DNA from: an uncultured Gammaproteobacteria bacterium | GTDB lineage: Bacteria > Patescibacteriota > Patescibacteriia > JAGPKW01 | Reading direction: 5' to 3' | NCBI GenBank assembly: GCA_964532735.1 | Contig: CAZHKK010000004.1 | Coordinates: 1 to 50,362, forward strand | Length of the DNA: 50,362 bases | Shown here: piece after piece, positions 15,415 through 50,362 of the stretch | Numbering within the stretch: the stretch's first letter is position 1 | Layout of the letters: each line of letters begins with the position of its first letter | Made by a program: the position numbers and the translations under genes | Notes under the pieces: generated by a model | What the model was told of the DNA's origin: nothing | What the model saw: the letters and a program-made list of their open reading frames with translations, nothing else | The model's database searches: none

Positions 15415-15501
<87 letters not shown>

Positions 15502-15530
15502 AAAAAACAGAACTAATGTTCTGTTTTTGT

Positions 15531-16994
15531 TTATATTATTTTATTTGATTCTTCTTTGTGTGCTTGTGTACCGTTTTTATTAAAAAATTCTATTGCAACT
15601 TTTAATTCTTCTAATTTATTTTTTTCTGCGTATTCTTCTATTTCTATATTTTGTTTGTATGCATCCCATGATTGAATTAATGCTGTTGCTCCTGCTTGTG
15701 TTCCCATTGGATGAGAATGAACCCCAGCTCCCATTGTTGTAATAAAATCTATTGTTCCTATTAAGTCAGCAAAAGGTTTTAACAATACTGGGTTTAATCC
15801 ACCTGATATTATAGGACAACATTTTTTAATAAATCTCCAATCTTTTGTTTTAGAAATATTTTTGTTTTCTAATTTATCTTTTATTATTTCTTTTGTTCCT
15901 TTTTCCCAAATTAATTTTTCTTTTCCTACTGCGTATATTATGTCTTTGTCGTTTTCTGGAACATCTGTCCATATTTGATTGAAATAATTTCCTTCACTAG
16001 CTATTTTAAGCGCTTGTTTTGCTGCTGTTATGTCTTCTTCGGGAGATCCTGCCATTTTGCCAACTCCGGCTGTTCCTGTATGTATTCCTGAAGCTCCAGC
16101 TAAACGAGCAAATTTTGTTAAAACAGGCACAGTAAACCCTATTGGATTTTCTTCTCTTGTAAATGCTCCATGTCCAGCTCTATGAAAATGTAAAAATACA
16201 TTAGGATATTTTCTTCTTATTGTTTGTATGGCCATCCATCCACATGTTATCCCGTCAACTAGAAATGCATAGCTTCCTGGTTTCATTGTTTTTGAAACAA
16301 ATTCTGCTCTTTCTAACATAGTATCATAATCAGCTGCAGAAATATTAAAAGAATGAACTTTTGTTTGTCCTGTTATTTCTTCTGCTTTATCCATTGCTAT
16401 TCTTACAGACTCAACCATTTTTTTATAAGGGCAAAATTCTTGATCTGCTTGTGGTTCGTCATTTTTTACAAAATCACCACCACCAACCCAAAAATCATAA
16501 CAAACTTCAGCATATTCTGTTGATGTAAGTCCTATTTTTGGTTTTATAATTGTTCCAAGAATTGGTCTGTCCCAATTATTTAAGTATTCTCTCATGTCAT
16601 CAATTGTATAACTTGGGCCATCATATTTATCTAACATTTGAGAAGGGAACCATACATCTAATAATTTACATTCTTTAAGACTGCTCATTCCAAAAATATT
16701 TCCAGCTATATATGTCATTATGTTTTGTATATTTCCGCCTCTATCAAATATTGAATATGGGTATGCTATCCATACTAATTTTTTTACTTCATCAAATTTA
16801 TAAACAACTGCGTTATGTTTTTTAGCATAAGCTGTTTGAGTTCCTACTTTTATGTTTGATCCAGTTGAAGATTCAGCACAAAGTTCGCTAGCCTCTCCTA
16901 AAAAATCACCACTATAAGTATCAAATTTGAATACAGCTAACATGTATTCTCCAGTGTTTATATCACGTCCTATGTCTATATATTCTTGTTGCAT
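15531..16994 (-). CDS. rbcL: Ribulose-1,5-bisphosphate carboxylase/oxygenase large subunit, form II/III-like
   Basis: The catalytic motifs are all present: CAESSTGS, AGNIFGM, IIKPKIGL, GGDFVKNDEPQ (carbamylated Lys plus Asp/Glu), LHFHRAGHGA, SGIHTGTAGVGKMAG and PIISGGLNP. There is an insertion (..KEKLIWEKGTKEIIKDKLENKNISK..) before the SGG motif, as in form II/III enzymes. Confidence 0.88.
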   Translation of the reverse strand: MQQEYIDIGRDINTGEYMLAVFKFDTYSGDFLGEASELCAESSTGSNIKVGTQTAYAKKHNAVVYKFDEVKKLVWIAYPYSIFDRGGNIQNIMTYIAGNIFGMSSLKECKLLDVWFPSQMLDKYDGPSYTIDDMREYLNNWDRPILGTIIKPKIGLTSTEYAEVCYDFWVGGGDFVKNDEPQADQEFCPYKKMVESVRIAMDKAEEITGQTKVHSFNISAADYDTMLERAEFVSKTMKPGSYAFLVDGITCGWMAIQTIRRKYPNVFLHFHRAGHGAFTREENPIGFTVPVLTKFARLAGASGIHTGTAGVGKMAGSPEEDITAAKQALKIASEGNYFNQIWTDVPENDKDIIYAVGKEKLIWEKGTKEIIKDKLENKNISKTKDWRFIKKCCPIISGGLNPVLLKPFADLIGTIDFITTMGAGVHSHPMGTQAGATALIQSWDAYKQNIEIEEYAEKNKLEELKVAIEFFNKNGTQAHKEESNKII

Positions 16995-17024
16995 AGTTTT
17001 TAAATTAACCTTTTAGTTATTTCT

Positions 17025-17053
17025 ATTATAACATATTTTTGTTAGAATGTCTG
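17025..17053 (-). promoter_or_regulatory. Candidate RuBisCO promoter
   Basis: The minus strand reads CAGACA, 17-nt spacer, TATAAT with an extended -10 TGT. Confidence 0.4.
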
Positions 17054-17071
17054 AGTTATTTAATTTATAAT
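17042..17071 (+). promoter_or_regulatory. Candidate mtnN promoter (near-leaderless transcript)
   Basis: TTAGAA, 18-nt spacer, TATAAT. The -10 ends 11 nt before ATG 17083 and no Shine-Dalgarno is visible. Confidence 0.35.
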
Positions 17072-17082
17072 TTATATAATTT

Positions 17083-17769
17083 ATGATAGGTATTGTTGGT
17101 GCTATGGAGGAAGAAATTATTTCTTTAAAAAATGAAGTTGAGAATTTTTCTGTTGAAAATATTGCCGGTATAGATTTTTTTATTGGAAATTTGTTTGGTA
17201 AAAAAATTGTTTTAACTAAATGTGGTATAGGCAAAGTAAATGCTGCTTTGTGCACAACTATTCTTATTAATAAATTTAATGTTTCTAAGATTGTTTTTAT
17301 TGGTGTTGCTGGAGCTGTTAATAAAGAATTGAAGGTTGGTAATATTGTAATTTCGCAAGATCTTATCGAGCATGATTTTGATACTACCATTTTTGGTGAA
17401 GAATTTGGCCAAATTCCTAGAATGAAAGAATGGAGATTTAGAGCCGACAAAAATTTAATTGATTTGGCTTCGTGTGTTTGCAATAAAAATAATTTAAATT
17501 TTGTTATTGGAAGAATATTAAGCGGGGATCAATTTATTAATTCTTCTGAGAAGGTAGAGTGGTTTAGAAAACAATTTGCTGGAGATGCTGTAGAAATGGA
17601 AGGAGCAGCATTGGCTCATGTTTGTTGTTTGTTTAATATTCCTTTTGTTGTTATTAGATCAATTTCTGATAATGCAGACAATTCTTCTCATGTTGATTTT
17701 AAAGAATTTTGTTTGTTAGCTGCGGAAAACTCTAAAAAAATTATTTGTGGTTTATTGGAAAAGATTTAA
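17083..17769 (+). CDS. mtnN: 5'-methylthioadenosine/S-adenosylhomocysteine nucleosidase
   Basis: It is colinear with the E. coli Pfs pattern: IGIVGAMEEEI, SGIGKV.AA, GVAGA, VEMEGAALAHVC, PFVVIRSISD.AD. Confidence 0.9.
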   Translation: MIGIVGAMEEEIISLKNEVENFSVENIAGIDFFIGNLFGKKIVLTKCGIGKVNAALCTTILINKFNVSKIVFIGVAGAVNKELKVGNIVISQDLIEHDFDTTIFGEEFGQIPRMKEWRFRADKNLIDLASCVCNKNNLNFVIGRILSGDQFINSSEKVEWFRKQFAGDAVEMEGAALAHVCCLFNIPFVVIRSISDNADNSSHVDFKEFCLLAAENSKKIICGLLEKI

Positions 17770-17777
17770 AATAAAAA

Positions 17778-17803
17778 ACAAGTCTTTTAAGACTTGTTTT
17801 TTG
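17778..17803. terminator. Bidirectional terminator between mtnN and tRNA-Pro
   Basis: Stem ACAAGTC/GACTTGT flanked by an A-run and a T-run. Confidence 0.6.
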
Positions 17804-17805
17804 TT

Positions 17806-17882
17806 TGGTCGGGGAGACAGGACTTGAACCTGCGGCCTCACGGTCCCAAACCGTGCGCTCTAGCCAACTGAGCTACACCCCG
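17806..17882 (-). tRNA. tRNA-Pro (anticodon TGG), encoded CCA
   Basis: The reverse complement folds as CGGGGTG..GCTC-AGTTGGCTA-GAGC, anticodon arm CACGG-TTTGGGA-CCGTG, T arm GCAGG-TTCAAGT-CCTGT, then ACCA. There is one U-U mismatch in the acceptor stem. Confidence 0.88.
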
Positions 17883-20637: not shown

Positions 20638-20712
20638 TGGAGCGGATTACCGGGATCGAACCGGCGGCCTCTTCCTTGGCAAGGAAGCGTTATACCACTT
20701 AACTAAATCCGC
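20638..20712 (-). tRNA. tRNA-Gly (anticodon GCC), encoded CCA
   Basis: Reverse complement: acceptor GCGGATT/AATCCGC, anticodon arm CTTCC-TTGCCAA-GGAAG, T arm GCCGG-TTCGATC-CCGGT. Confidence 0.9.
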
Positions 20713-20758: not shown

Positions 20759-20835
20759 TGGTGGCGAAGAGCAGGATCGAACTGCCGACCTTAGGGTTAT
20801 GAATCCTACGCTCTAACCAACTGAGCTACCTCGCC
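20759..20835 (-). tRNA. tRNA with CAT anticodon (elongator Met or lysidine-modified Ile2; not initiator type), encoded CCA
   Basis: Reverse complement: acceptor GGCGAGG/CTTCGCC with G1-C72 paired, anticodon loop TTCATAA, T arm GGCAG-TTCGATC-CTGCT. There is no GGG/CCC run in the anticodon stem. Confidence 0.85.
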
Positions 20836-41344: not shown

Positions 41345-44300
41345 ATGTTTGAAAAACATACAGAAGCCATAAGACAGTATGTTAAAAACATTGATAAGAA
41401 AACATCTCCAACATATTTATTGGAGATACAAAAAAATTCTTATGAATGGTTTTTTAGAGAAGGTTTAAAGGACCTTTTTGATGAAATAAATCCTATAAAA
41501 GATATTATAGGTAGAGATTTTGAGTTATATTTTCTTGATTATGCTCTTGATGAGCCAAAGTTTGATGAAAATACAGCTCGTTTTAAAAATTTAACATACG
41601 AAGCTTCATTAAAAGTTAAAAGTAAATTAGTAAATAAAAAAACAGGAGAAATAAAAGAACAAGATGTTTATCTTGGTGATTTTCCTATTATGACTTCTCA
41701 TGGAACTTTTGTTATTAATGGTATTGAGAGAGTTGTTGTTTCTCAACTTGTTAGAAGTCCTGGTGTTTTTTTTACTACTGATATTGTAAGAGGTAGAAAA
41801 TATTATGGAGCTAAAATTATTCCTAATAGAGGAGCTTGGCTTGAAATTGTTACGGACCAACATAATGTTTTGTGGGTAAAAATAGATAGAAAAAGAAAAG
41901 TAGCTGTTACATCATTATTGCAAGCTTTTGGTATGGATATTGATGAAATTAAATCTACTTTTACTGAAGTTGATAGCGATCCAGATATTTCTTTTATTGA
42001 TGCTACAATTAAAAAAGATTCTGCAAGAAATCAAGAAGACGCTTTACTTGAAGTTTATAAAAGAATTAGACCAGGTGATCTTGCTACTCCAGAAAATGCT
42101 AAATCTTTAATTTTTGCAACTTTCTTTAATTTCGAAAGGTATGATTTTAGTAAGGTTGGAAGATATAAAATTAATAAAAAATTTAATTTTGATATTCCAA
42201 ATACTCCAGAAACAAGAATTTTAAGAATGGAAGATTTAATTGCTATAATTTCAGAGATTATTAAATTAAACATCAGTCAGGATGAGGCCGATGATATTGA
42301 TCATCTTTCAAATAGAAGAGTTAGATCAATTGGTGAATTATTGCAAAGTAAATTAAGAGTTGGTTTGGCTAGAATGAGAAGAATTATTAAAGATAAAATG
42401 AGTACTCTTAATGTTGAATCAGTTACTCCAGTTCAACTTATTAATTCAAGACCTATTACATCTGTTGTAAGAGAGTTTTTTATGTCTTCTCAATTATCTC
42501 AATTTATGGATCAGATTAATCCACTTGCTGAACTTGAACATAAGAGAAGACTTTCTGTAATGGGGCCAGGTGGTCTTGTTAGAGAAAGAGCTGGTTTTGA
42601 AGTTCGTGATGTTCATAGAACTCATTATGGTAAAATTTGTCCTATTGAATCTCCAGAAGGTTCTAATATTGGTTTAGTTGGACATATGTCTGTTTATGCA
42701 AGAGTAAATGAATATGGTTTTCTTGAAACTCCTTATAAGAAAGTTTATAGAATTATTGAAAATTCAGCCAAATTACTTGAGGGTAAAATTTTAAACGAAA
42801 CAATAAAAGGGATAGGAAAGATTGGAGATAAAATAACTAAGGAATTAGCTAAAAAGATAGAATCTGATAAAAAAATAAAAGAAATTTCTATTAAGCCTTT
42901 TGTTAGTGAAGAAATTCATTATTTAACTTCTTCTGATGAGGAAAGATACAATATCGCAATTAATTATAATTTAGTTGATGGTCATTATTTTAAAAAAGAT
43001 TTTATTGAAGGAAGAATAAATGGAGAGGCTGGAACTATTCTTGTTGAACAAGTTGATTATATGGATGTTTCTAATATGCAAATAGTTGGAGTTTCTGCTG
43101 CTTTGATTCCATTCCTTGAACATACTGATGCTCATAGAGCTTTGATGGGTTCTAACATGCAAAGACAAGCTGTTCCTTGTATAGTTCCAGAATCTCCTGT
43201 TATAGGAACTGGGCTTGAAGGTGTTGTTGCTCGTGATTCTGGTCAAATTTTTATAGCTCCAGTTGATGGAACTGTAATAGAAGCAGATGCTAATTTGATT
43301 AGATTATTAGGTGATGATAAAAATATTTATTCTTATCAAATAAGAAAATTTGTTGAATCTAATGCAGGAACTTGTATAAATCAAAGATTACTTGTTACTT
43401 CTGGTGAAAAAGTTAAGGAGGGTCAAGTTTTGGTTGATGGAACTTCTATTGAAAAAGGAGAATTAGCTCTTGGTCAAAATTTAACAGTTGCTTTTATGTG
43501 TTGGGAAGGTGGTAATTATGAAGATGCTATTTTACTTTCTGAAAGAGTTGTTCAAAAAGATAGATATACTTCTATACATATAAGTAAAAAGATAATGGCT
43601 GTTAGAGAAACAAAAATTGGTCCAGAGGTTATAACTAGAGATATTCCTAATATTTCTGATGAAAAATTAAAAAATCTTGATGAAGATGGAGTTGTAAGGG
43701 TTGGTTCAGAAGTTTCTTCTGGGGATATTCTTGTTGGTAAAATTACTCCAAAAGGGGAAACTGAATTATCTGCTGAAGAAAGATTACTTAGAGCTATTTT
43801 TGGTGATAAAGCAAAAGATGTGAGAGATAGTTCTTTGAGATTAGAACATGGAGAAAGAGGAAAAGTTGTAGATATTAAAATATTTTCAAGAGATAAAGGA
43901 GATAAACTTCCTTCTGGTGTTATAAAACAAATTGAAGTTTCTATTGCTACTTTGAGAAAAGTACAAGTTGGAGATAAAATGGCTGGTAGGTATGGTAATA
44001 AGGGTGTTATTTCTAGAATTGTTAAAATGGAAGATATGCCATATCTAGAAAATGGAAAGCCAGTTGATATATTATTAAACCCTCTTGGTGTTGTTTCTAG
44101 AATGAATTTGGGACAATTATTTGAAGTTCATTTAGGACTTGCTGCTCAAGCTTTAGGAGTAAAAATAGCAACTCCTGTTTTTGATGGAGTTAGTAAGGAA
44201 GAAGTTATTGAACAATTAACAAAAGCAGGTTTTCCTGCTGATGGCAAAATTCAATTATACGACGGAAGAACAGGAGAGCCTTTTACTGAAAAAACTACTG

Positions 44301-47300
44301 TTGGTGTAATGTATATGTTAAAACTTAATCATTTAGTTGAAGACAAAATACATCAGAGATCTATTGGGCCATATTCTCTTGTTACTCAACAACCACTTGG
44401 AGGTAAGGCTCAATTTGGTGGACAAAGACTTGGAGAAATGGAGGTATGGGCACTTGAAGCTTATGGAGCCGCTCATATGTTACAAGAAATGTTAACTATA
44501 AAATCAGATGATGTTATAGGTAGATCAAAAGCTTATGAATCTATTATTAGAGGTGAAAAAATTCAAAAACTTGATGTACCGGAATCATTTAATGTATTAG
44601 TTAGAGAAATGAAGGGACTTTGTTTAGATGTTCAATTATTAAAAAAAGATGAAGAAAATAAATTTAATGATATTACTTCATTGTTTTTTGATGAAGCTTC
44701 TATAGCTGATAATGTTAATGCTAGAAAAATTTTAAATTTTGATGGAATTAAATTATCTGTTGCTTCTCCTGATAAAATAAAATCATGGTCTTTTGGGGAA
44801 GTTACTAAACCTGAAACTATTAATTATAGAACACAAAAACCTGAAAAAGATGGTCTTCTTTGTGAAAAAATATTCGGACCAGTAAAAGATTGGGAATGTG
44901 CTTGTGGAAAGTATAGAAAAATTAAATATAAAGGAATTGTTTGTGATAAATGTGGGGTAGAAGTAACTAAGAGTATAGTTAGAAGATCTAGATTCGGGCA
45001 TATTGATTTATGTGTTCCAGTTACTCATATTTGGTTTTTAAAAGGTATTCCTTCTAAAGTTGGTTTACTTCTTGATTTGACAGCTCAATCTCTTGAAAAA
45101 GTTGTTTATTTTGCTGATTTTATAATTACTAATATAAATGAAGAATTAAAAAATGAAGTTGTAGAAAGATTAAATAACGAATATAAAGGAAAGAAAAAAT
45201 CTGTAGAAAATGAGTTTAAGCAAAAAATTGATAATGCAAAAAATAAATCTGAAAAAGAAGGATTGGATATAAAAGAAGTTGTTATTAGTTTAGAAAAAGA
45301 ATTTGAACAGGCATTGGATAACTTAAAAGCAGAATTTGAAGAAATAAAAACAGATTTATCTGATCTTAAACTTAAAAAGATTTTAAGTGAAGAAAAATTT
45401 AGAAGACTTTCTATTAAATTCGGTTATTTATTTGAAGCTAGTATTGGTGCAGAAGCTATTCATAAATTGCTTTCTGATATTGATTTGGATGTTTTATATA
45501 AAGAACTTGAAGATCAATTACCAACGGTTTCTGCTTTAAATAAAAAGAGATTACTTGCAAGAATTCAACTTGTAGATAATATGATTAGAAATGGTATAAG
45601 ACCTGAATGGATGGTTCTTACTACAGTTCCTATTTTACCACCTTCTCTTAGACCTATAGTTCAACTTGATGGTGGAAGATTTGCGTCTTCTGATTTAAAT
45701 GATTTATATAGAAGAATTATTAATAGAAATAATCGTCTTAAGAGACTTATATCTATTAATGCTCCAGAAGTTATTTCTAGAAACGAAAAAAGAATGTTAC
45801 AAGAAGCAGTTGATGCTTTGATTGATAATGGTGCTAGAAAAGGAAAAATGATTACTTCTTCTACTGGACAAAAGAGAGCTTTAAAGTCTATTGCTGATTC
45901 TTTAAAAGGTAAACAAGGAAGATTTAGACAAAATTTACTTGGTAAGAGAGTTGATTATTCTGGAAGATCTGTAATAGTTGTTGGGCCTAAATTAAAATTA
46001 TATCAATGTGGTTTACCAAAAATAATGGCTATAGAATTATTTAAACCATTTGTAATTTCTGAACTTATTAGAAGAGAGTTTGTGTTTAATATAAGGGCAG
46101 CTTCTCGTATGATTGAACAAGGAGTAAAAGAAGTTTGGGATATACTTGAAGAAGTTGTTTCTAAAGCTTATGTTTTATTAAATAGAGCACCTTCTCTACA
46201 TAGATTAAGTATACAGGCTTTCAAACCAGTTTTAATTGATGGTAAAGCAATTCAATTACATCCATTAGTTTGTGAGGCTTTTAATGCTGATTTTGATGGA
46301 GATCAAATGGCTGTTCATGTTCCATTATCTTCAGAAGCTATGTATGAAGCTGGTCATATAATGCTTTCATCTCATAATTTATTAAAACCTGCTAATGGAG
46401 ATCCTGTTTCTCTTCCTAGATTGGATATGATTCTTGGTTCTTATACTTTAACAAATATTAAAGATATTAAATCTTTTGAAAATTCTTCTTCTCATGTTTT
46501 TGCTTCTTACAAAGATATGTATTCTTGTTTTGTAATGAATAAATTAACATTACAAAGTAAAGTAAGTTTTAAAGATGATAATAACAATAATATAACAACT
46601 AGTGTTGGTAGAGCTTTGTTTAATAGTATTTTACCTTATGAAGCTAGAGATTATGATACTTCTTTTGATAAAAAATCTACAAAAAAATTATTTGCTAAAA
46701 TACTTGATGTTTATGGATTTGAAAGAACTGCTATATTGATAGATGACATAAAAGATTTGACTATAGAATATCTTACAAAATCTGGTATTTCTATAAGTAT
46801 TTGTGATTTGCCTGATATTTCTGAAGAAAAAAGTATTTATGTTGAAAATGCTCGTAATCAAGTAAATACAATAAAAGAACAATATGAAATGGGATTTTTG
46901 ACTGATCAAGAAAGACATAGAAAGGTTATTGAAGTTTGGGCAAAAGTTAAAGATGAAGTTTCTTTAATATCTGATAATAAATTTGATAAACTTAGTCCTT
47001 TTTATACTATTGTTAAATCTGGTTCTAGAGGAACTCCTGCTCAGCTTAATCAGATGGTTTCTATGAAGGGTCTTGTTATTAGTCCTTCTGGGGACACATT
47101 AGAACTTCCTATTAGACATTCTTTACAAGAAGGTTTTGATGCTCTTGAATATTTTATTTCTACACATGGTGCTAGGAAAGGTCTTACAGATACTGCATTA
47201 AAAACTGCTTCTGCTGGTTATTTAACAAGAAGATTAGTTGATGTTGCACAAGATGTTATAATAACAACTGAAGACTGTGGAGATAAAGATGGAGTTTTGA

Positions 47301-48556
47301 TTACCAAAAAAGAATCAAATGAAATAGGTGAACCTATTGAAAATAGATTATTTGGAAGATATTCTCTTGAAGATGTTATTGATAGAGAAACTAATGAAAA
47401 GATTGTTTTAAAGGGTGAATATATATCAAAAATTCAAGCTAAGAAAATATCTGAATCAAGTATAGAATCCATTAGAGTTAGGTCTGTTCTTGCTTGTAAT
47501 TGTGATAGAGGTGTTTGTCAAAAATGTTATGGTTATGATTTGGGAAGAAATAAACTTGTTGAAAATGGTGCTCCTGTTGGAGTTGTAGCTGCTCAAAGTA
47601 TTGGTGAACCTGCTACACAGCTTGTTCTTAGAACTTTCCATTCTGGAGGTATTTCAGGTTCTGATATTACTCAAGGTCTTCCTAGAGTAGAAGAAATTTT
47701 TGAAGGAAGATCTGTTAAAAAGAAAGCTTTTCTTGCTGAGTTTGATGGAAAAGTTATTATATCTGATTCTAAAAATAAAGAAAAAGAAATTATTATAACT
47801 TTGCAATATTTAAATAAAAATTCAGAAGATTATGAAATTTCTAAAGATTCTGAAGTCTTCGTAAAGAATGGTCAAAAAGTTAAAATGGGAGATGTTTTAA
47901 TGAAAGTTGTTGATAAACAATTTAATGCTAAAAATGCAGGAGTTGTTAAAATGGATAAAGAAAAAATATCTATATATTTTGAGAAAGACGAAGAAAAAGA
48001 ATATGTGATTCCTTTTGGGTATAATATTTTGATAAAAAATGGCGCTTCTGTTTCAAGAGGAGATGTTTTAACAGATGGTAGTATTGATCTTTATGAATTA
48101 TTTGAATTAAAGGGTCAAAATGCTGTTCAAAAATATATATTAAAAGAAATACAACATGTTTATACATTACAAGGACAAGATTTGAATGATAAACATATTG
48201 AAATTATTACTAGACAAATGTTCTCTAAGGTAAGAATAATTAATCCTGGAGATAGTAAATTAATTAGGGGTGATGTTATTAGTCTTGGTAAATTTAATTC
48301 TATAAATTCTAAAATTAAAGCTGATGGTGGAAAGATAGCTAAAGGAACTACTCTTCTTATGGGTATTACTAAGGTTTCTGAATTTAGTGATTCTTGGTTA
48401 TCTGCTGCTTCCTTCCAAGAAACAACTAAAGCTCTTGTTAATGCTTCAATTTCTGGTGAAATAGATGAATTACAAGGATTAAAAGAAAACGTTATTATTG
48501 GTAAATTAGTTCCTGTTGGAACAGGTTTACTTGATTCAAATACTCTTATTGATTAA
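41345..48556 (+). CDS. rpoBC: DNA-directed RNA polymerase beta and beta' subunits fused in one 2403-codon reading frame
   Basis: Beta motifs occupy the first ~1100 aa (..NRRVRSIGELL.., GPGGL..ERAGFEVRDVH, GEMEVWALEAYGAAH, PESFNVLVREMKGLCLDV). The same frame then carries the beta' N-terminus (IKLSVASPDKIKSWSFGEV), the Zn finger CACGKYRKIKYKGIVCDKCGVEV and the catalytic NADFDGDQM. There is no stop codon between them. Confidence 0.9.
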   Translation: MFEKHTEAIRQYVKNIDKKTSPTYLLEIQKNSYEWFFREGLKDLFDEINPIKDIIGRDFELYFLDYALDEPKFDENTARFKNLTYEASLKVKSKLVNKKTGEIKEQDVYLGDFPIMTSHGTFVINGIERVVVSQLVRSPGVFFTTDIVRGRKYYGAKIIPNRGAWLEIVTDQHNVLWVKIDRKRKVAVTSLLQAFGMDIDEIKSTFTEVDSDPDISFIDATIKKDSARNQEDALLEVYKRIRPGDLATPENAKSLIFATFFNFERYDFSKVGRYKINKKFNFDIPNTPETRILRMEDLIAIISEIIKLNISQDEADDIDHLSNRRVRSIGELLQSKLRVGLARMRRIIKDKMSTLNVESVTPVQLINSRPITSVVREFFMSSQLSQFMDQINPLAELEHKRRLSVMGPGGLVRERAGFEVRDVHRTHYGKICPIESPEGSNIGLVGHMSVYARVNEYGFLETPYKKVYRIIENSAKLLEGKILNETIKGIGKIGDKITKELAKKIESDKKIKEISIKPFVSEEIHYLTSSDEERYNIAINYNLVDGHYFKKDFIEGRINGEAGTILVEQVDYMDVSNMQIVGVSAALIPFLEHTDAHRALMGSNMQRQAVPCIVPESPVIGTGLEGVVARDSGQIFIAPVDGTVIEADANLIRLLGDDKNIYSYQIRKFVESNAGTCINQRLLVTSGEKVKEGQVLVDGTSIEKGELALGQNLTVAFMCWEGGNYEDAILLSERVVQKDRYTSIHISKKIMAVRETKIGPEVITRDIPNISDEKLKNLDEDGVVRVGSEVSSGDILVGKITPKGETELSAEERLLRAIFGDKAKDVRDSSLRLEHGERGKVVDIKIFSRDKGDKLPSGVIKQIEVSIATLRKVQVGDKMAGRYGNKGVISRIVKMEDMPYLENGKPVDILLNPLGVVSRMNLGQLFEVHLGLAAQALGVKIATPVFDGVSKEEVIEQLTKAGFPADGKIQLYDGRTGEPFTEKTTVGVMYMLKLNHLVEDKIHQRSIGPYSLVTQQPLGGKAQFGGQRLGEMEVWALEAYGAAHMLQEMLTIKSDDVIGRSKAYESIIRGEKIQKLDVPESFNVLVREMKGLCLDVQLLKKDEENKFNDITSLFFDEASIADNVNARKILNFDGIKLSVASPDKIKSWSFGEVTKPETINYRTQKPEKDGLLCEKIFGPVKDWECACGKYRKIKYKGIVCDKCGVEVTKSIVRRSRFGHIDLCVPVTHIWFLKGIPSKVGLLLDLTAQSLEKVVYFADFIITNINEELKNEVVERLNNEYKGKKKSVENEFKQKIDNAKNKSEKEGLDIKEVVISLEKEFEQALDNLKAEFEEIKTDLSDLKLKKILSEEKFRRLSIKFGYLFEASIGAEAIHKLLSDIDLDVLYKELEDQLPTVSALNKKRLLARIQLVDNMIRNGIRPEWMVLTTVPILPPSLRPIVQLDGGRFASSDLNDLYRRIINRNNRLKRLISINAPEVISRNEKRMLQEAVDALIDNGARKGKMITSSTGQKRALKSIADSLKGKQGRFRQNLLGKRVDYSGRSVIVVGPKLKLYQCGLPKIMAIELFKPFVISELIRREFVFNIRAASRMIEQGVKEVWDILEEVVSKAYVLLNRAPSLHRLSIQAFKPVLIDGKAIQLHPLVCEAFNADFDGDQMAVHVPLSSEAMYEAGHIMLSSHNLLKPANGDPVSLPRLDMILGSYTLTNIKDIKSFENSSSHVFASYKDMYSCFVMNKLTLQSKVSFKDDNNNNITTSVGRALFNSILPYEARDYDTSFDKKSTKKLFAKILDVYGFERTAILIDDIKDLTIEYLTKSGISISICDLPDISEEKSIYVENARNQVNTIKEQYEMGFLTDQERHRKVIEVWAKVKDEVSLISDNKFDKLSPFYTIVKSGSRGTPAQLNQMVSMKGLVISPSGDTLELPIRHSLQEGFDALEYFISTHGARKGLTDTALKTASAGYLTRRLVDVAQDVIITTEDCGDKDGVLITKKESNEIGEPIENRLFGRYSLEDVIDRETNEKIVLKGEYISKIQAKKISESSIESIRVRSVLACNCDRGVCQKCYGYDLGRNKLVENGAPVGVVAAQSIGEPATQLVLRTFHSGGISGSDITQGLPRVEEIFEGRSVKKKAFLAEFDGKVIISDSKNKEKEIIITLQYLNKNSEDYEISKDSEVFVKNGQKVKMGDVLMKVVDKQFNAKNAGVVKMDKEKISIYFEKDEEKEYVIPFGYNILIKNGASVSRGDVLTDGSIDLYELFELKGQNAVQKYILKEIQHVYTLQGQDLNDKHIEIITRQMFSKVRIINPGDSKLIRGDVISLGKFNSINSKIKADGGKIAKGTTLLMGITKVSEFSDSWLSAASFQETTKALVNASISGEIDELQGLKENVIIGKLVPVGTGLLDSNTLID

Positions 48557-48574
48557 TAATAATTGTTAAAAAAA

Positions 48575-48602
48575 ACACGTGGAGTTTTCCACGTGTTTTT
48601 TG
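48575..48602 (+). terminator. Rho-independent terminator after rpoBC
   Basis: ACACGTGGA-GTTT-TCCACGTGT followed by T6 and preceded by an A-run. Confidence 0.75.
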
Positions 48603-48655
48603 TTGTTTCAAAATGGTATAATTAAATCATAAATATTAGCTCTTTTTTAAATTTT

Positions 48656-50362
48656 ATGAAAAATTTTTTTAAAAAATTAAGTATAGTATCCATTTTTTGT
48701 TTTTTGTTTTTTGTTATTATTAATAACGTTTTTGCTGTTGCAAGTATCTCAATTTCCCAAAGAGAAGTAATAAGAGATACAAAAAGACTTAATGATCTTA
48801 CTGTTTTTAGAAAAGCTATAGAGGAATATAAAACAAAAAATGGATTCTATCCAAAATTAGAAACTGGAACTAATATAAAAGGTTATGTTAACTCTTCGTG
48901 GTCTAATCAATGGATTTCTTTTTGTAATATATTAGGTTTGTCTTCTTGTCCTGTTGATCCTATTAATACTATTATTGGTTGTGATTGTTCTGTATTTAAT
49001 CCAGATGGACAATGTAGTGGAGATAATATAAACGAAAATATAGATACAACTACTTGTTATAATTCAAAATCTCAATCTTTTGCATGTGTGGATGGTTCTC
49101 GTATTTATCAATATCAATCATTAAATAATGGAAGAAACTATTCTTTAATGATGGAGTTTGAATATTCTGATAATGTTAATTGGGAAGTAGAATCTTCTTC
49201 TGATAATTTAATATTAATAAAGAACTCTTGTGTGTCAGGTGATAATTTTTACAAAATTCTTTCTAATAAACTTCAAAAATGTGGTGATGGTATTTTAGGA
49301 TATAATGAAATGTGTGAAGTAGGTTCTAGAAAAACAGAATTTTGTAAAACACTTAACAACAAGACAGGAGTAAGATATATAGAATGTTCTAATTCTTGTG
49401 TTTGGGATAATACAAATGTTGGGGAATGTAATGTTATTGGTTTTTGTGGTGATGGAATAATACAAACTGATAAAGGTGAAGAATGTGATGGTGGTTATCA
49501 AAAAATGTGTTACAACTATCAAGATTATTTATATAAAAATACTTCTGATAAATATGCAATTAATTCTCATTATAATTGGTATAATGAACAAATAAGACAT
49601 TGTGGTTTAAATTGTAAATGGAATGGTGAATATATAGATTCTACTATTTATTGTGGAGGTTTTTGTGGTGATGGAATAATACAAACTGATAAAGGTGAAG
49701 AATGTGACGATCCTAATGATAAACATTGTGATATTTCTAAATGTAAATACAAGAATAGTGCTCCTACTATTGTTTTTGATTTTTTAGAAAATAGATATTC
49801 AAAAAATAGTTATATCAAATCTAATGTTTGGAGTGGTGATAAATTTCAATATAATAATGACTATAATGGAACAGGAAATATTGATTTAATAATAGCTGAT
49901 AAACAAGATAATGAAATTGTTGCTATTTGGAATTCAGAATTTATAGAAATAAAAACCAATGTTCAAGATAAAGAAAATGATAGTATATCTTTTAAATATG
50001 CTTTTCCTTTAAGTCATAATATTAATTTTGCTATAAAATATTCTAAATCTTCTGATCCATCAAAAACTTTTTACGATTACAATTTTGGAGAATATGTTTT
50101 AGATGCTGATATTATTAGAATATATCCAACAACAATTCAGAATGGTAAAAATACTTACAAGAATTTTGTTGAAGAAAAGGAAAATTTATTATTTGGTCAT
50201 AGTTATGCTGGTTATTATAAATTAGAAATTTCTATAAAAGAAAATTATAATAAAGGTTTACATAGTTCTTCTAATCCACATGGTTTATCTTCAACAAAAA
50301 GCATTAACTTTAAGATAGGACCAGGTTGTGGCGATAGAATTTTACAAAAAGAATTAGGGGAA
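48656..50362 (+). CDS. Secreted pilin-like/Cys-rich-repeat protein, 3'-truncated by the window end (at least 569 aa)
   Basis: The open frame from ATG 48656 to the window edge was checked codon by codon and has no stop. It is absent from the ORF track, apparently because it has no stop within the window. It begins with a signal/anchor (MKNFFKKLSIVSIFCFLFFVIINNVFA) and a pseudopilin-like segment (RDTKRLNDLTVFRKAIEEYKTKNGFYP..CPVDPIN). It then has at least 4 CGDG...ECD Cys-rich repeats. Confidence 0.7.
   Translation, partial: MKNFFKKLSIVSIFCFLFFVIINNVFAVASISISQREVIRDTKRLNDLTVFRKAIEEYKTKNGFYPKLETGTNIKGYVNSSWSNQWISFCNILGLSSCPVDPINTIIGCDCSVFNPDGQCSGDNINENIDTTTCYNSKSQSFACVDGSRIYQYQSLNNGRNYSLMMEFEYSDNVNWEVESSSDNLILIKNSCVSGDNFYKILSNKLQKCGDGILGYNEMCEVGSRKTEFCKTLNNKTGVRYIECSNSCVWDNTNVGECNVIGFCGDGIIQTDKGEECDGGYQKMCYNYQDYLYKNTSDKYAINSHYNWYNEQIRHCGLNCKWNGEYIDSTIYCGGFCGDGIIQTDKGEECDDPNDKHCDISKCKYKNSAPTIVFDFLENRYSKNSYIKSNVWSGDKFQYNNDYNGTGNIDLIIADKQDNEIVAIWNSEFIEIKTNVQDKENDSISFKYAFPLSHNINFAIKYSKSSDPSKTFYDYNFGEYVLDADIIRIYPTTIQNGKNTYKNFVEEKENLLFGHSYAGYYKLEISIKENYNKGLHSSSNPHGLSSTKSINFKIGPGCGDRILQKELGE
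49439..49707. repeat. Two identical 50-nt segments (49439-49488 and 49658-49707) encoding GFCGDGIIQTDKGEECD
   Basis: The copies are identical on manual base-by-base comparison, with a 219-nt period, in frame. Confidence 0.85.

Follow-up and report, generated by a model that had tools for sequence, protein, structure and literature searches.

Among the form II/III RuBisCO enzymes of candidate phyla radiation (CPR) bacteria, the PER enzyme is an active carboxylase (PMC5113843), and all of the RuBisCO-bearing CPR genomes studied by Wrighton et al. (2016, PMC5113843) carry both deoA, for adenosine monophosphate (AMP) phosphorylase, and e2b2, for ribose-1,5-bisphosphate (R15P) isomerase. In PER-1, these partner genes are found on another scaffold than rbcL (PMC5113843). 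Co-location of the AMP-pathway genes with RuBisCO is found chiefly for form III-c and less for the other forms; deoA and e2b2 follow the phylogeny of the organism, and RuBisCO has been laterally transferred (Jaffe et al. 2019, PMC6389311). A different involvement of an authentic RuBisCO has been described in Rhodospirillum rubrum, in which the enzyme is required for the anaerobic metabolism of 5'-methylthioadenosine (MTA) and is induced about 10-fold by MTA, along a route that begins with MTA phosphorylase and methylthioribose-1-phosphate (MTR-1P) isomerase and not with a nucleosidase (PMC4958253). All authentic RuBisCO forms complement the R. rubrum defect, and the reaction behind the RuBisCO requirement has been called puzzling (PMC6302742). 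Here, we analyzed contig CAZHKK010000004.1 of assembly GCA_964532735.1 (positions 1 to 50,362; the window, meaning this whole stretch of 50,362 nucleotides), where a form II/III rbcL gene and mtnN, the gene of an MTA/S-adenosylhomocysteine (SAH) nucleosidase, form a divergent pair separated by 88 bp (Table 1). A sequence-only reading of this DNA had described the same layout, which we recovered, and had proposed, as a testable idea, that the pair is a co-regulated module that salvages the ribose moiety of S-adenosylmethionine (SAM) by-products. Our results favor a plainer account: most likely, rbcL and mtnN are ordinary housekeeping genes, independent of each other and neighbors by descent in one narrow lineage of Patescibacteria.

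The distribution of the pairing was surveyed across 104 loci, of which 101 have a form II/III rbcL; they were gathered by a reference-genome scan, a metagenome scan that used a 55-sequence alignment as its seed, and exact-protein look-ups. Lineages were defined as clusters at 95% RuBisCO identity (72 lineages), and the upstream side was considered assessable when at least 800 bp lay upstream of rbcL (61 lineages). MtnN adjoins rbcL in a single one of these 61 lineages, the one that holds the window and loci L018 and L098 (GCA_041441495.1). In this arrangement, here called type A, mtnN and rbcL point away from each other across 88, 167, and 135 bp, respectively. When MtnN was sought anywhere in the flanks, it was present in 3 of the 38 lineages with at least 5 kb upstream, all belonging to one clade with RuBisCO at least 92% identical. 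The relatives called type B (L001 and L101/L103/L104; RuBisCO 92 to 93% identical to that of the window) keep the genes flanking rbcL, but its direct neighbor is a small hypothetical open reading frame (ORF), and their MtnN (231 amino acids) is encoded 5.3 to 5.5 kb from rbcL. MtnN was not found in the available flanks of L019 (RuBisCO 88% identical) or of the 78% relatives (L002, L017, and others). Since housekeeping proteins are about equally diverged in both types (HflX is 82 to 84% identical to that of the window in type A and 80 to 83% in type B), the rbcL-mtnN adjacency varies inside a genus-level group. Taken as a test for a conserved functional pair, the survey thus gave a negative result, the adjacency not being kept across divergent lineages, and the conserved co-regulated pair of the sequence-only reading largely dissolves among the relatives. 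Moreover, one such adjacency in one genome would not be statistically remarkable, because in this place any one out of several dozen genes related to nucleotides or SAM would have been flagged.

As the relatives show, the position next to rbcL is itself variable. With rbcL set on the plus strand, a framework of ZIP transporter, tRNA-Pro(tgg), a slot, rbcL, tRNA-Leu(caa), RRM protein, SPFH protein, DciA, and HflX recurs in close relatives. In type A, type B, and L019, the rbcL unit is bounded downstream by the conserved tRNA-Leu(caa); L017 and L002 keep the upstream tRNA-Pro but have a tRNA-Cys downstream of rbcL. The slot between tRNA-Pro and rbcL holds MtnN in the window, MtnN and orf145 in L098, a hypothetical ORF of 122 to 162 amino acids in type B, a ThyX-like protein with two cupin-like ORFs and a membrane protein in L019, an 822-amino-acid LamG protein and orf219 in L017, and membrane proteins in L002. 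Upstream of MtnN in L018, an insertion (L018:5249-8018) stands where other relatives have tRNA-Pro and ZIP; it encodes a Dcm-type cytosine methyltransferase, recognized by eye, and a 571-amino-acid HATPase_c_3/Hypoth_Ymh protein, and it looks like a restriction-modification or defense-type element. The contents thus differ among relatives, and MtnN is one of the occupants that alternate in this rearrangement-prone position flanked by tRNAs.

In type B, MtnN lies beside tRNA-Gly and tRNA-Met, 55 bp downstream of an extracytoplasmic function (ECF) sigma/anti-sigma pair. The ECF sigma factor, a putative anti-sigma membrane protein, and MtnN follow each other on the same strand (L001:3783-5791; L101:8663-10696) in what looks like an operon, an unusual regulatory context for a nucleosidase and one that speaks against a joint module with RuBisCO. 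The window has tRNA-Gly(gcc) and tRNA-Met(cat) at a second variable position, with only about 70 bp between tRNA-Gly and the acyltransferase gene, where type B has the ECF sigma, anti-sigma, and MtnN genes beside the tRNAs.

The adjacency in the window might also be a misjoin, with the two genes not truly side by side. However, the identical RuBisCO recurs on seven contigs obtained independently from different samples; the neighboring MtnN is full length on six of them and truncated at the contig end on the seventh (L016). In addition, about eight studies include at least 20 public DNA runs that contain 81 to 100% of the sampled words of the region. Two further species have the same arrangement. 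An assembly artifact was therefore ruled out, and we give a chimera practically no chance. The population is found in metagenomes from bioreactors, wastewater, farms, and manure, and the syntenic relatives carry the submitters' label Patescibacteria group bacterium.

The spacer between the two genes was inspected for signs of joint control. In an alignment of the window, L018, L001, and L019, the extended -10 core TGnTATAAT and the AAAAGG ribosome-binding site of rbcL are, apart from AT-rich sequence, the only conserved elements, and they are kept whatever the upstream neighbor. Beyond these, the three type A spacers have little in common, and the alignment of L098 is poor over the -10. No convincing MtnN promoter was seen in the 88-bp spacer, and neither spacer alignments nor a palindrome search revealed a shared operator, at a sensitivity that is low for a sequence so short and of 13.6% GC; its inverted repeats are low-complexity TTATAA-type sequence. 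Since the promoter scan returned no more promoter-like sites than chance would give (16 against an expected 18.9), the only site relied on here is the one that is also conserved across relatives. The proposed co-regulation finds no footing in these data, as rbcL keeps its -10 core and ribosome-binding site in relatives without an MtnN neighbor. Terminator-like hairpins directly follow both genes, and each would probably serve as a bidirectional terminator; rbcL and mtnN may therefore be two monocistronic units. Two sludge metatranscriptomes contain one exact contig of about 190 nucleotides each on rbcL, and one of them also has an exact 235-nucleotide contig on the RRM gene, which is compatible with rbcL expression. 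No contig in either metatranscriptome covers mtnN, the coverage being too thin to bear on co-regulation.

Next to the order of the genes, their identities were evaluated. The RuBisCO ORF contains both RuBisCO large-chain Pfam domains, the catalytic one split by Pfam at residue 346. Its score is above the cut-off of NF010002, the NCBIfam equivalog for the form II type (541 bits; cut-off, 489), and far below that of the form III model (323 bits; cut-off, 497). Against solved structures, residues 1 to 474 align with 9dyp (720 bits), 5mac (657 bits), and 8vgs (654 bits), whereas the best form II structure match reaches 304 bits over residues 22 to 344 only and form III structures about 200 bits. 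We take 5mac, deposited as "type III", to be the form II/III enzyme of Methanococcoides burtonii. Because of the full-length matches to 9dyp, 5mac, and 8vgs, as opposed to form II matches of about 300 bits over residues 22 to 344, the window enzyme is classified, by sequence comparison, as form II/III. All of the catalytic motifs quoted by the sequence-only reading were found, namely, KPK (residue 151), GGGDFVKNDEPQ (171), HFHRAGHG (269), GIHTGT (303), GVGKM (310), and ISGG (396). The active-site residues E41, N99, K151, K153, K177, D179, E180, H271, R272, H305, K313, S397, G398, G399, G422, and G424 are all present, and none of them varies among 55 form II/III homologs; their catalytic roles (carbamylated lysine, Mg ligands, and phosphate sites) are assumed here from established RuBisCO knowledge. 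A form IV RuBisCO-like protein (RLP) was considered and rejected, since the RLP models are far from being passed (MtnW, 94 to 123 bits with cut-offs of 409 to 514; OiaX, 146 bits with a cut-off of 700) and the active site has no substitutions. The protein is thus an authentic RuBisCO, as had been read from the letters alone.

The insert specific to form II/III between the GKM and SGG motifs is present in its long version (approximately residues 330 to 390), and the alignments with 9dyp and 5mac continue through it. Although this insert is about 15 residues longer than those of 9dyp and 5mac, the long form is the majority state among the 55 aligned homologs, and it was rejected as a peculiarity of the window. 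Overall, the enzyme resembles the CPR and M. burtonii form II/III RuBisCOs in its full-length similarity, catalytic residues, insert, and CPR host. Given the intact active site and the active PER enzyme, it would be expected to carboxylate ribulose-1,5-bisphosphate (RuBP). Residue 174 (window positions 16473-16475), just before the FVKNDEPQ motif with the carbamylated lysine, varies within the form, with Asp in 40 and His in 11 of the 55 form II/III sequences; L001, whose RuBisCO is 93% identical, has His at this position (L001:10520-10522).

The nucleosidase passes both MTA/SAH equivalogs, NF004079 with 274 bits (cut-off, 169) and TIGR01704 with 217 bits (cut-off, 74), and its catalytic residues E11, E171-M172-E173, and S195-D196 are intact, in agreement with the earlier assignment to MtnN/Pfs. 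It shares its length, an end-to-end alignment, and the motifs GAMEEE, VEME, and ISD with the MTA/SAH nucleosidases of Escherichia coli and Staphylococcus aureus (PDB 1jys and 3bl6). Where E. coli has S76, the window protein has a valine (V75), but so do 119 of the 120 nearest homologs, and this substitution was discarded as a peculiarity. M8, F151, and F209 are also conserved; by comparison with the E. coli structures, they presumably line the hydrophobic 5'-alkylthio pocket.

The nearest relatives of this MtnN form a small Patescibacteria cluster (59 to 81% identity), beyond which the nearest named homologs come from Fusobacteria (Cetobacterium and Fusobacteriaceae, about 50 to 57%) and Clostridia (50 to 53%). 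In a neighbor-joining tree, type A and type B MtnN are sister groups nested among Fusobacteria-type sequences. This homolog list and the tree tentatively suggest one lateral acquisition by the ancestor of the clade, from a Fusobacteria/Clostridia-type source, followed by relocation. Within type A, MtnN is the fastest-diverging syntenic gene product (67 to 69% identity, against 76 to 100% for the others and 96 to 97% for RuBisCO). The composition of mtnN is like that of the host genome (GC, 29%; GC3, 0.17); being barely above its neighbors, it is uninformative as a sign of recent transfer.

If the two proteins did form a dedicated module, MtnN would free methylthioribose (MTR), 5-deoxyribose, or S-ribosylhomocysteine, and RuBisCO would process a phosphorylated derivative. 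The divergent arrangement over 88 bp and the retention of the pairing in three species-level lineages are what such a module would lead one to see, and E2b2 and MtnA do belong to one protein family. Nevertheless, the chemistry is unfavorable. MtnN yields adenine plus MTR, 5-deoxyribose, or S-ribosylhomocysteine, and both MTR and 5-deoxyribose are without the 5-hydroxyl group, so they cannot be phosphorylated at C5 and no 1,5-bisphosphate is possible. MTR kinase (MtnK), MTA phosphorylase (MtnP), MTR-1P isomerase (MtnA), and the aldolase were not found in the window or in the flanks of the type A and type B relatives, no IF-2B-family match was detected in the window, and no Pfam family of a methionine-salvage or dihydroxyacetone phosphate (DHAP) shunt cluster in the window or these flanks. 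The locus resembles the methionine salvage clusters of the RLP MtnW/YkrW and the DHAP shunt (MtnN or MtnP, MtnK, MtnA, and Ald2) in having a RuBisCO-superfamily gene near a gene of MTA metabolism, but its protein is not an RLP, and mtnK, mtnA, mtnB, and ald2 do not accompany rbcL. With the adjacency confined to 1 of 61 lineages and broken within the same genus-level clade, and with the rbcL promoter core conserved where MtnN is absent, we consider a co-regulated module very improbable. What stands of the sequence-only reading is the identity of both genes and the absence of DeoA and E2b2 from the window; its nucleosidase-RuBisCO module is not supported.

R. rubrum provides the closest precedent for such a link, and the sequence-only reading had correctly pointed to the connection of its form II RuBisCO to MTA (PMC4958253, PMC6302742). 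In both cases an authentic RuBisCO, and not an RLP, is found in an organism for which the disposal of MTA is a necessity. The two differ in that R. rubrum employs a phosphorylase plus an isomerase and an MTA-induced RuBisCO, whereas the window has a nucleosidase, no kinase or isomerase nearby, and a pairing that is not conserved. There is only a very slim chance that a laterally gained MtnN and the authentic form II/III RuBisCO jointly act on SAM by-products, with RuBisCO performing the anaerobic step on MTA or 5'-deoxynucleosides for which R. rubrum provides the genetic evidence. If this were true, the locus would offer a natural system of minimal size for finding out why anaerobic MTA metabolism requires RuBisCO and by which reaction.

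Homologs of DeoA, the E2b2/MtnA family, Prs, and HIT were not detected in the window by tblastn with verified seeds (E of at most 1e-3), and the gene inventory agrees, as the sequence-only reading had seen for DeoA and E2b2. The DeoA seed sequences come from distant loci with an archaeal-looking gene content. That reading had MtnN standing beside RuBisCO instead of these AMP-salvage partners. This does not follow, because DeoA and E2b2 are usually not near form II/III rbcL. In the surveyed flanks, DeoA is near rbcL in 4 of 101 loci (TIGR03327, 564 bits; cut-off, 535) and an IF-2B-family protein in 3 of 101, its best match being the R15P isomerase model at 145 bits, below the cut-off of 314. 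The absence of the partners from the 50-kb window is expected, since both the literature and our survey show rbcL to be rarely linked to deoA or e2b2; PER-1 is alike in this respect. The textbook arrangement, with an E2b2-like isomerase, a form II/III rbcL, and an AMP phosphorylase on one contig, was observed among the surveyed loci only in L055 (8477-9286, 10001-11416, and 16889-18370), L081, L084, and L052; the isomerase is 270 amino acids long and scores the 145 bits given above.

Other nucleotide-related genes also recur beside rbcL. In L023 and L025 to L029 (e.g., L028:11407-12420, minus strand), a phosphoribosyl pyrophosphate (PRPP) synthetase gene (TIGR01251, 285 bits) lies directly downstream of rbcL, convergent and about 30 bp away, in a clade with RuBisCO 66 to 68% identical to that of the window. 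This neighborhood may bear on older proposals of a route from PRPP through R15P to RuBP. A HIT-family gene, for a HinT-like nucleotide phosphoramidase, is found within a few kilobases of rbcL at eight loci of several lineages, namely, L023 (2760-3167), L025, L026, L028, L059, L063, L073, and L091.

Several observations weigh against the view that rbcL and mtnN are merely neighbors by descent. Some clades have nucleotide or ribose genes by rbcL (PRPP synthetase at six loci, HIT at eight, and DeoA/E2b2 at four), and the rbcL of PER-1 lies among purine and pyrimidine genes (PMC5113843). Three species-level lineages have retained the adjacency although MtnN diverged to 67 to 69% identity, and MtnN is still within about 5.5 kb of rbcL in the sister lineages and, thus, in all five lineages of the clade. 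These observations would suit a loose nucleoside-salvage neighborhood, in which a shared purine and ribose economy mildly favors proximity without a dedicated pathway. For example, adenine released by MtnN could pass through adenine phosphoribosyltransferase to AMP and on to DeoA, E2b2, and RuBisCO, or MtnN could be relaxed toward adenosine. Adenosine as the main substrate is disfavored by the conserved M8, F151, and F209, if our assignment of the pocket holds. Moreover, each association is restricted to a clade, most of the recurrent neighbors of rbcL are plain housekeeping genes (CysS, NusA, IF-2, PNPase, and DnaJ), and short-range synteny within a genus needs no selection. A loose neighborhood of this kind therefore appears unlikely, if still conceivable.

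Under the preferred reading of two independent genes, the form II/III RuBisCO would carboxylate RuBP derived from nucleotide ribose, by homology with characterized CPR and archaeal enzymes, in a pathway that leads from AMP through R15P and RuBP to two molecules of 3-phosphoglycerate, with AMP phosphorylase and R15P isomerase presumably encoded elsewhere in the genome. MtnN, acting on MTA, SAH, and 5'-deoxyadenosine, would clear inhibitory SAM by-products and free adenine for salvage. The ancestor of the clade would have gained mtnN laterally from a Fusobacteria/Clostridia-type source, and the gene would have landed in the rearrangement-prone slot between tRNA-Pro and rbcL, where the two genes would be transcribed separately, each from a promoter of its own to a terminator hairpin of its own.

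The window as a whole, from a genome of 26.7% GC, is a stretch of housekeeping genes. It includes comM, dprA, topA, relA/spoT, parB, ndk, a type IV secretion system-type pilin gene, spoIID, hflX, dciA, the genes of the SPFH and RRM proteins, rbcL, mtnN, the genes of the ZIP transporter, an acyltransferase, and a response regulator, and further Rrf2, iscS, iscU, an M50 protease gene, the str, S10, and spc ribosomal operons, and a fused rpoB-rpoC. This last gene is a single ORF of 2,403 amino acids for a fused RNA polymerase beta-beta' subunit, with Rpb2 domains at residues 25 to 1100 and Rpb1 domains at residues 1131 to 2319, and it is located directly after secY and not at the usual rplL-rpoB-rpoC place. 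Fusions of rpoB and rpoC are also known from Helicobacter and Wolbachia. At the end of the window, an ORF that runs off the edge and is thus partial (at least 579 amino acids) combines a hydrophobic segment at its N terminus with repeated, cysteine-rich CGDGIIQTDKGEECD motifs; it probably encodes a secreted or surface repeat protein.

Table 1. Positions of the rbcL-mtnN locus and of other features in the window
Feature	Position	Strand	Remarks
tRNA-Leu(caa)	15415..15501	+	Convergent with rbcL; Rfam and ARAGORN
Terminator-like hairpin	15503..15528		tRNA-Leu end to rbcL stop; 11-bp stem, A/T runs on both sides; consensus scan only
rbcL, form II/III RuBisCO	15531..16994	-	487 amino acids
Divergent spacer	16995..17082		88 bp, 13.6% GC
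rbcL ribosome-binding site AAAAGG	17014-17009	-	
rbcL extended -10 TGTTATAAT	17033-17025	-	
-35-like CAGACA	17053-17048	-	Weak
mtnN (pfs), MTA/SAH nucleosidase	17083..17769	+	228 amino acids
Terminator-like hairpin	17773..17802		mtnN stop to tRNA-Pro; 13-bp stem, flanking A and T runs; consensus scan only
tRNA-Pro(tgg)	17806..17882	-	Conserved outer boundary of the variable slot; Rfam/ARAGORN
tRNA-Gly(gcc)	20638-20712	-	Second variable position
tRNA-Met(cat)	20759-20835	-	Second variable position
Fused rpoB-rpoC	41345-48556	+	
Partial ORF, probable secreted or surface repeat protein	~48400-50362	+	Off the end of the window

The survey puts numbers to earlier work, in that form II/III rbcL is rarely linked to deoA or e2b2 and its neighbors mostly follow the lineage of the organism. 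The rbcL-mtnN locus may thus be read as a cautionary case: in small, AT-rich CPR genomes, two neighboring genes that suggest a metabolic link can owe their pairing to a short-lived accident of order within a variable slot between tRNAs.

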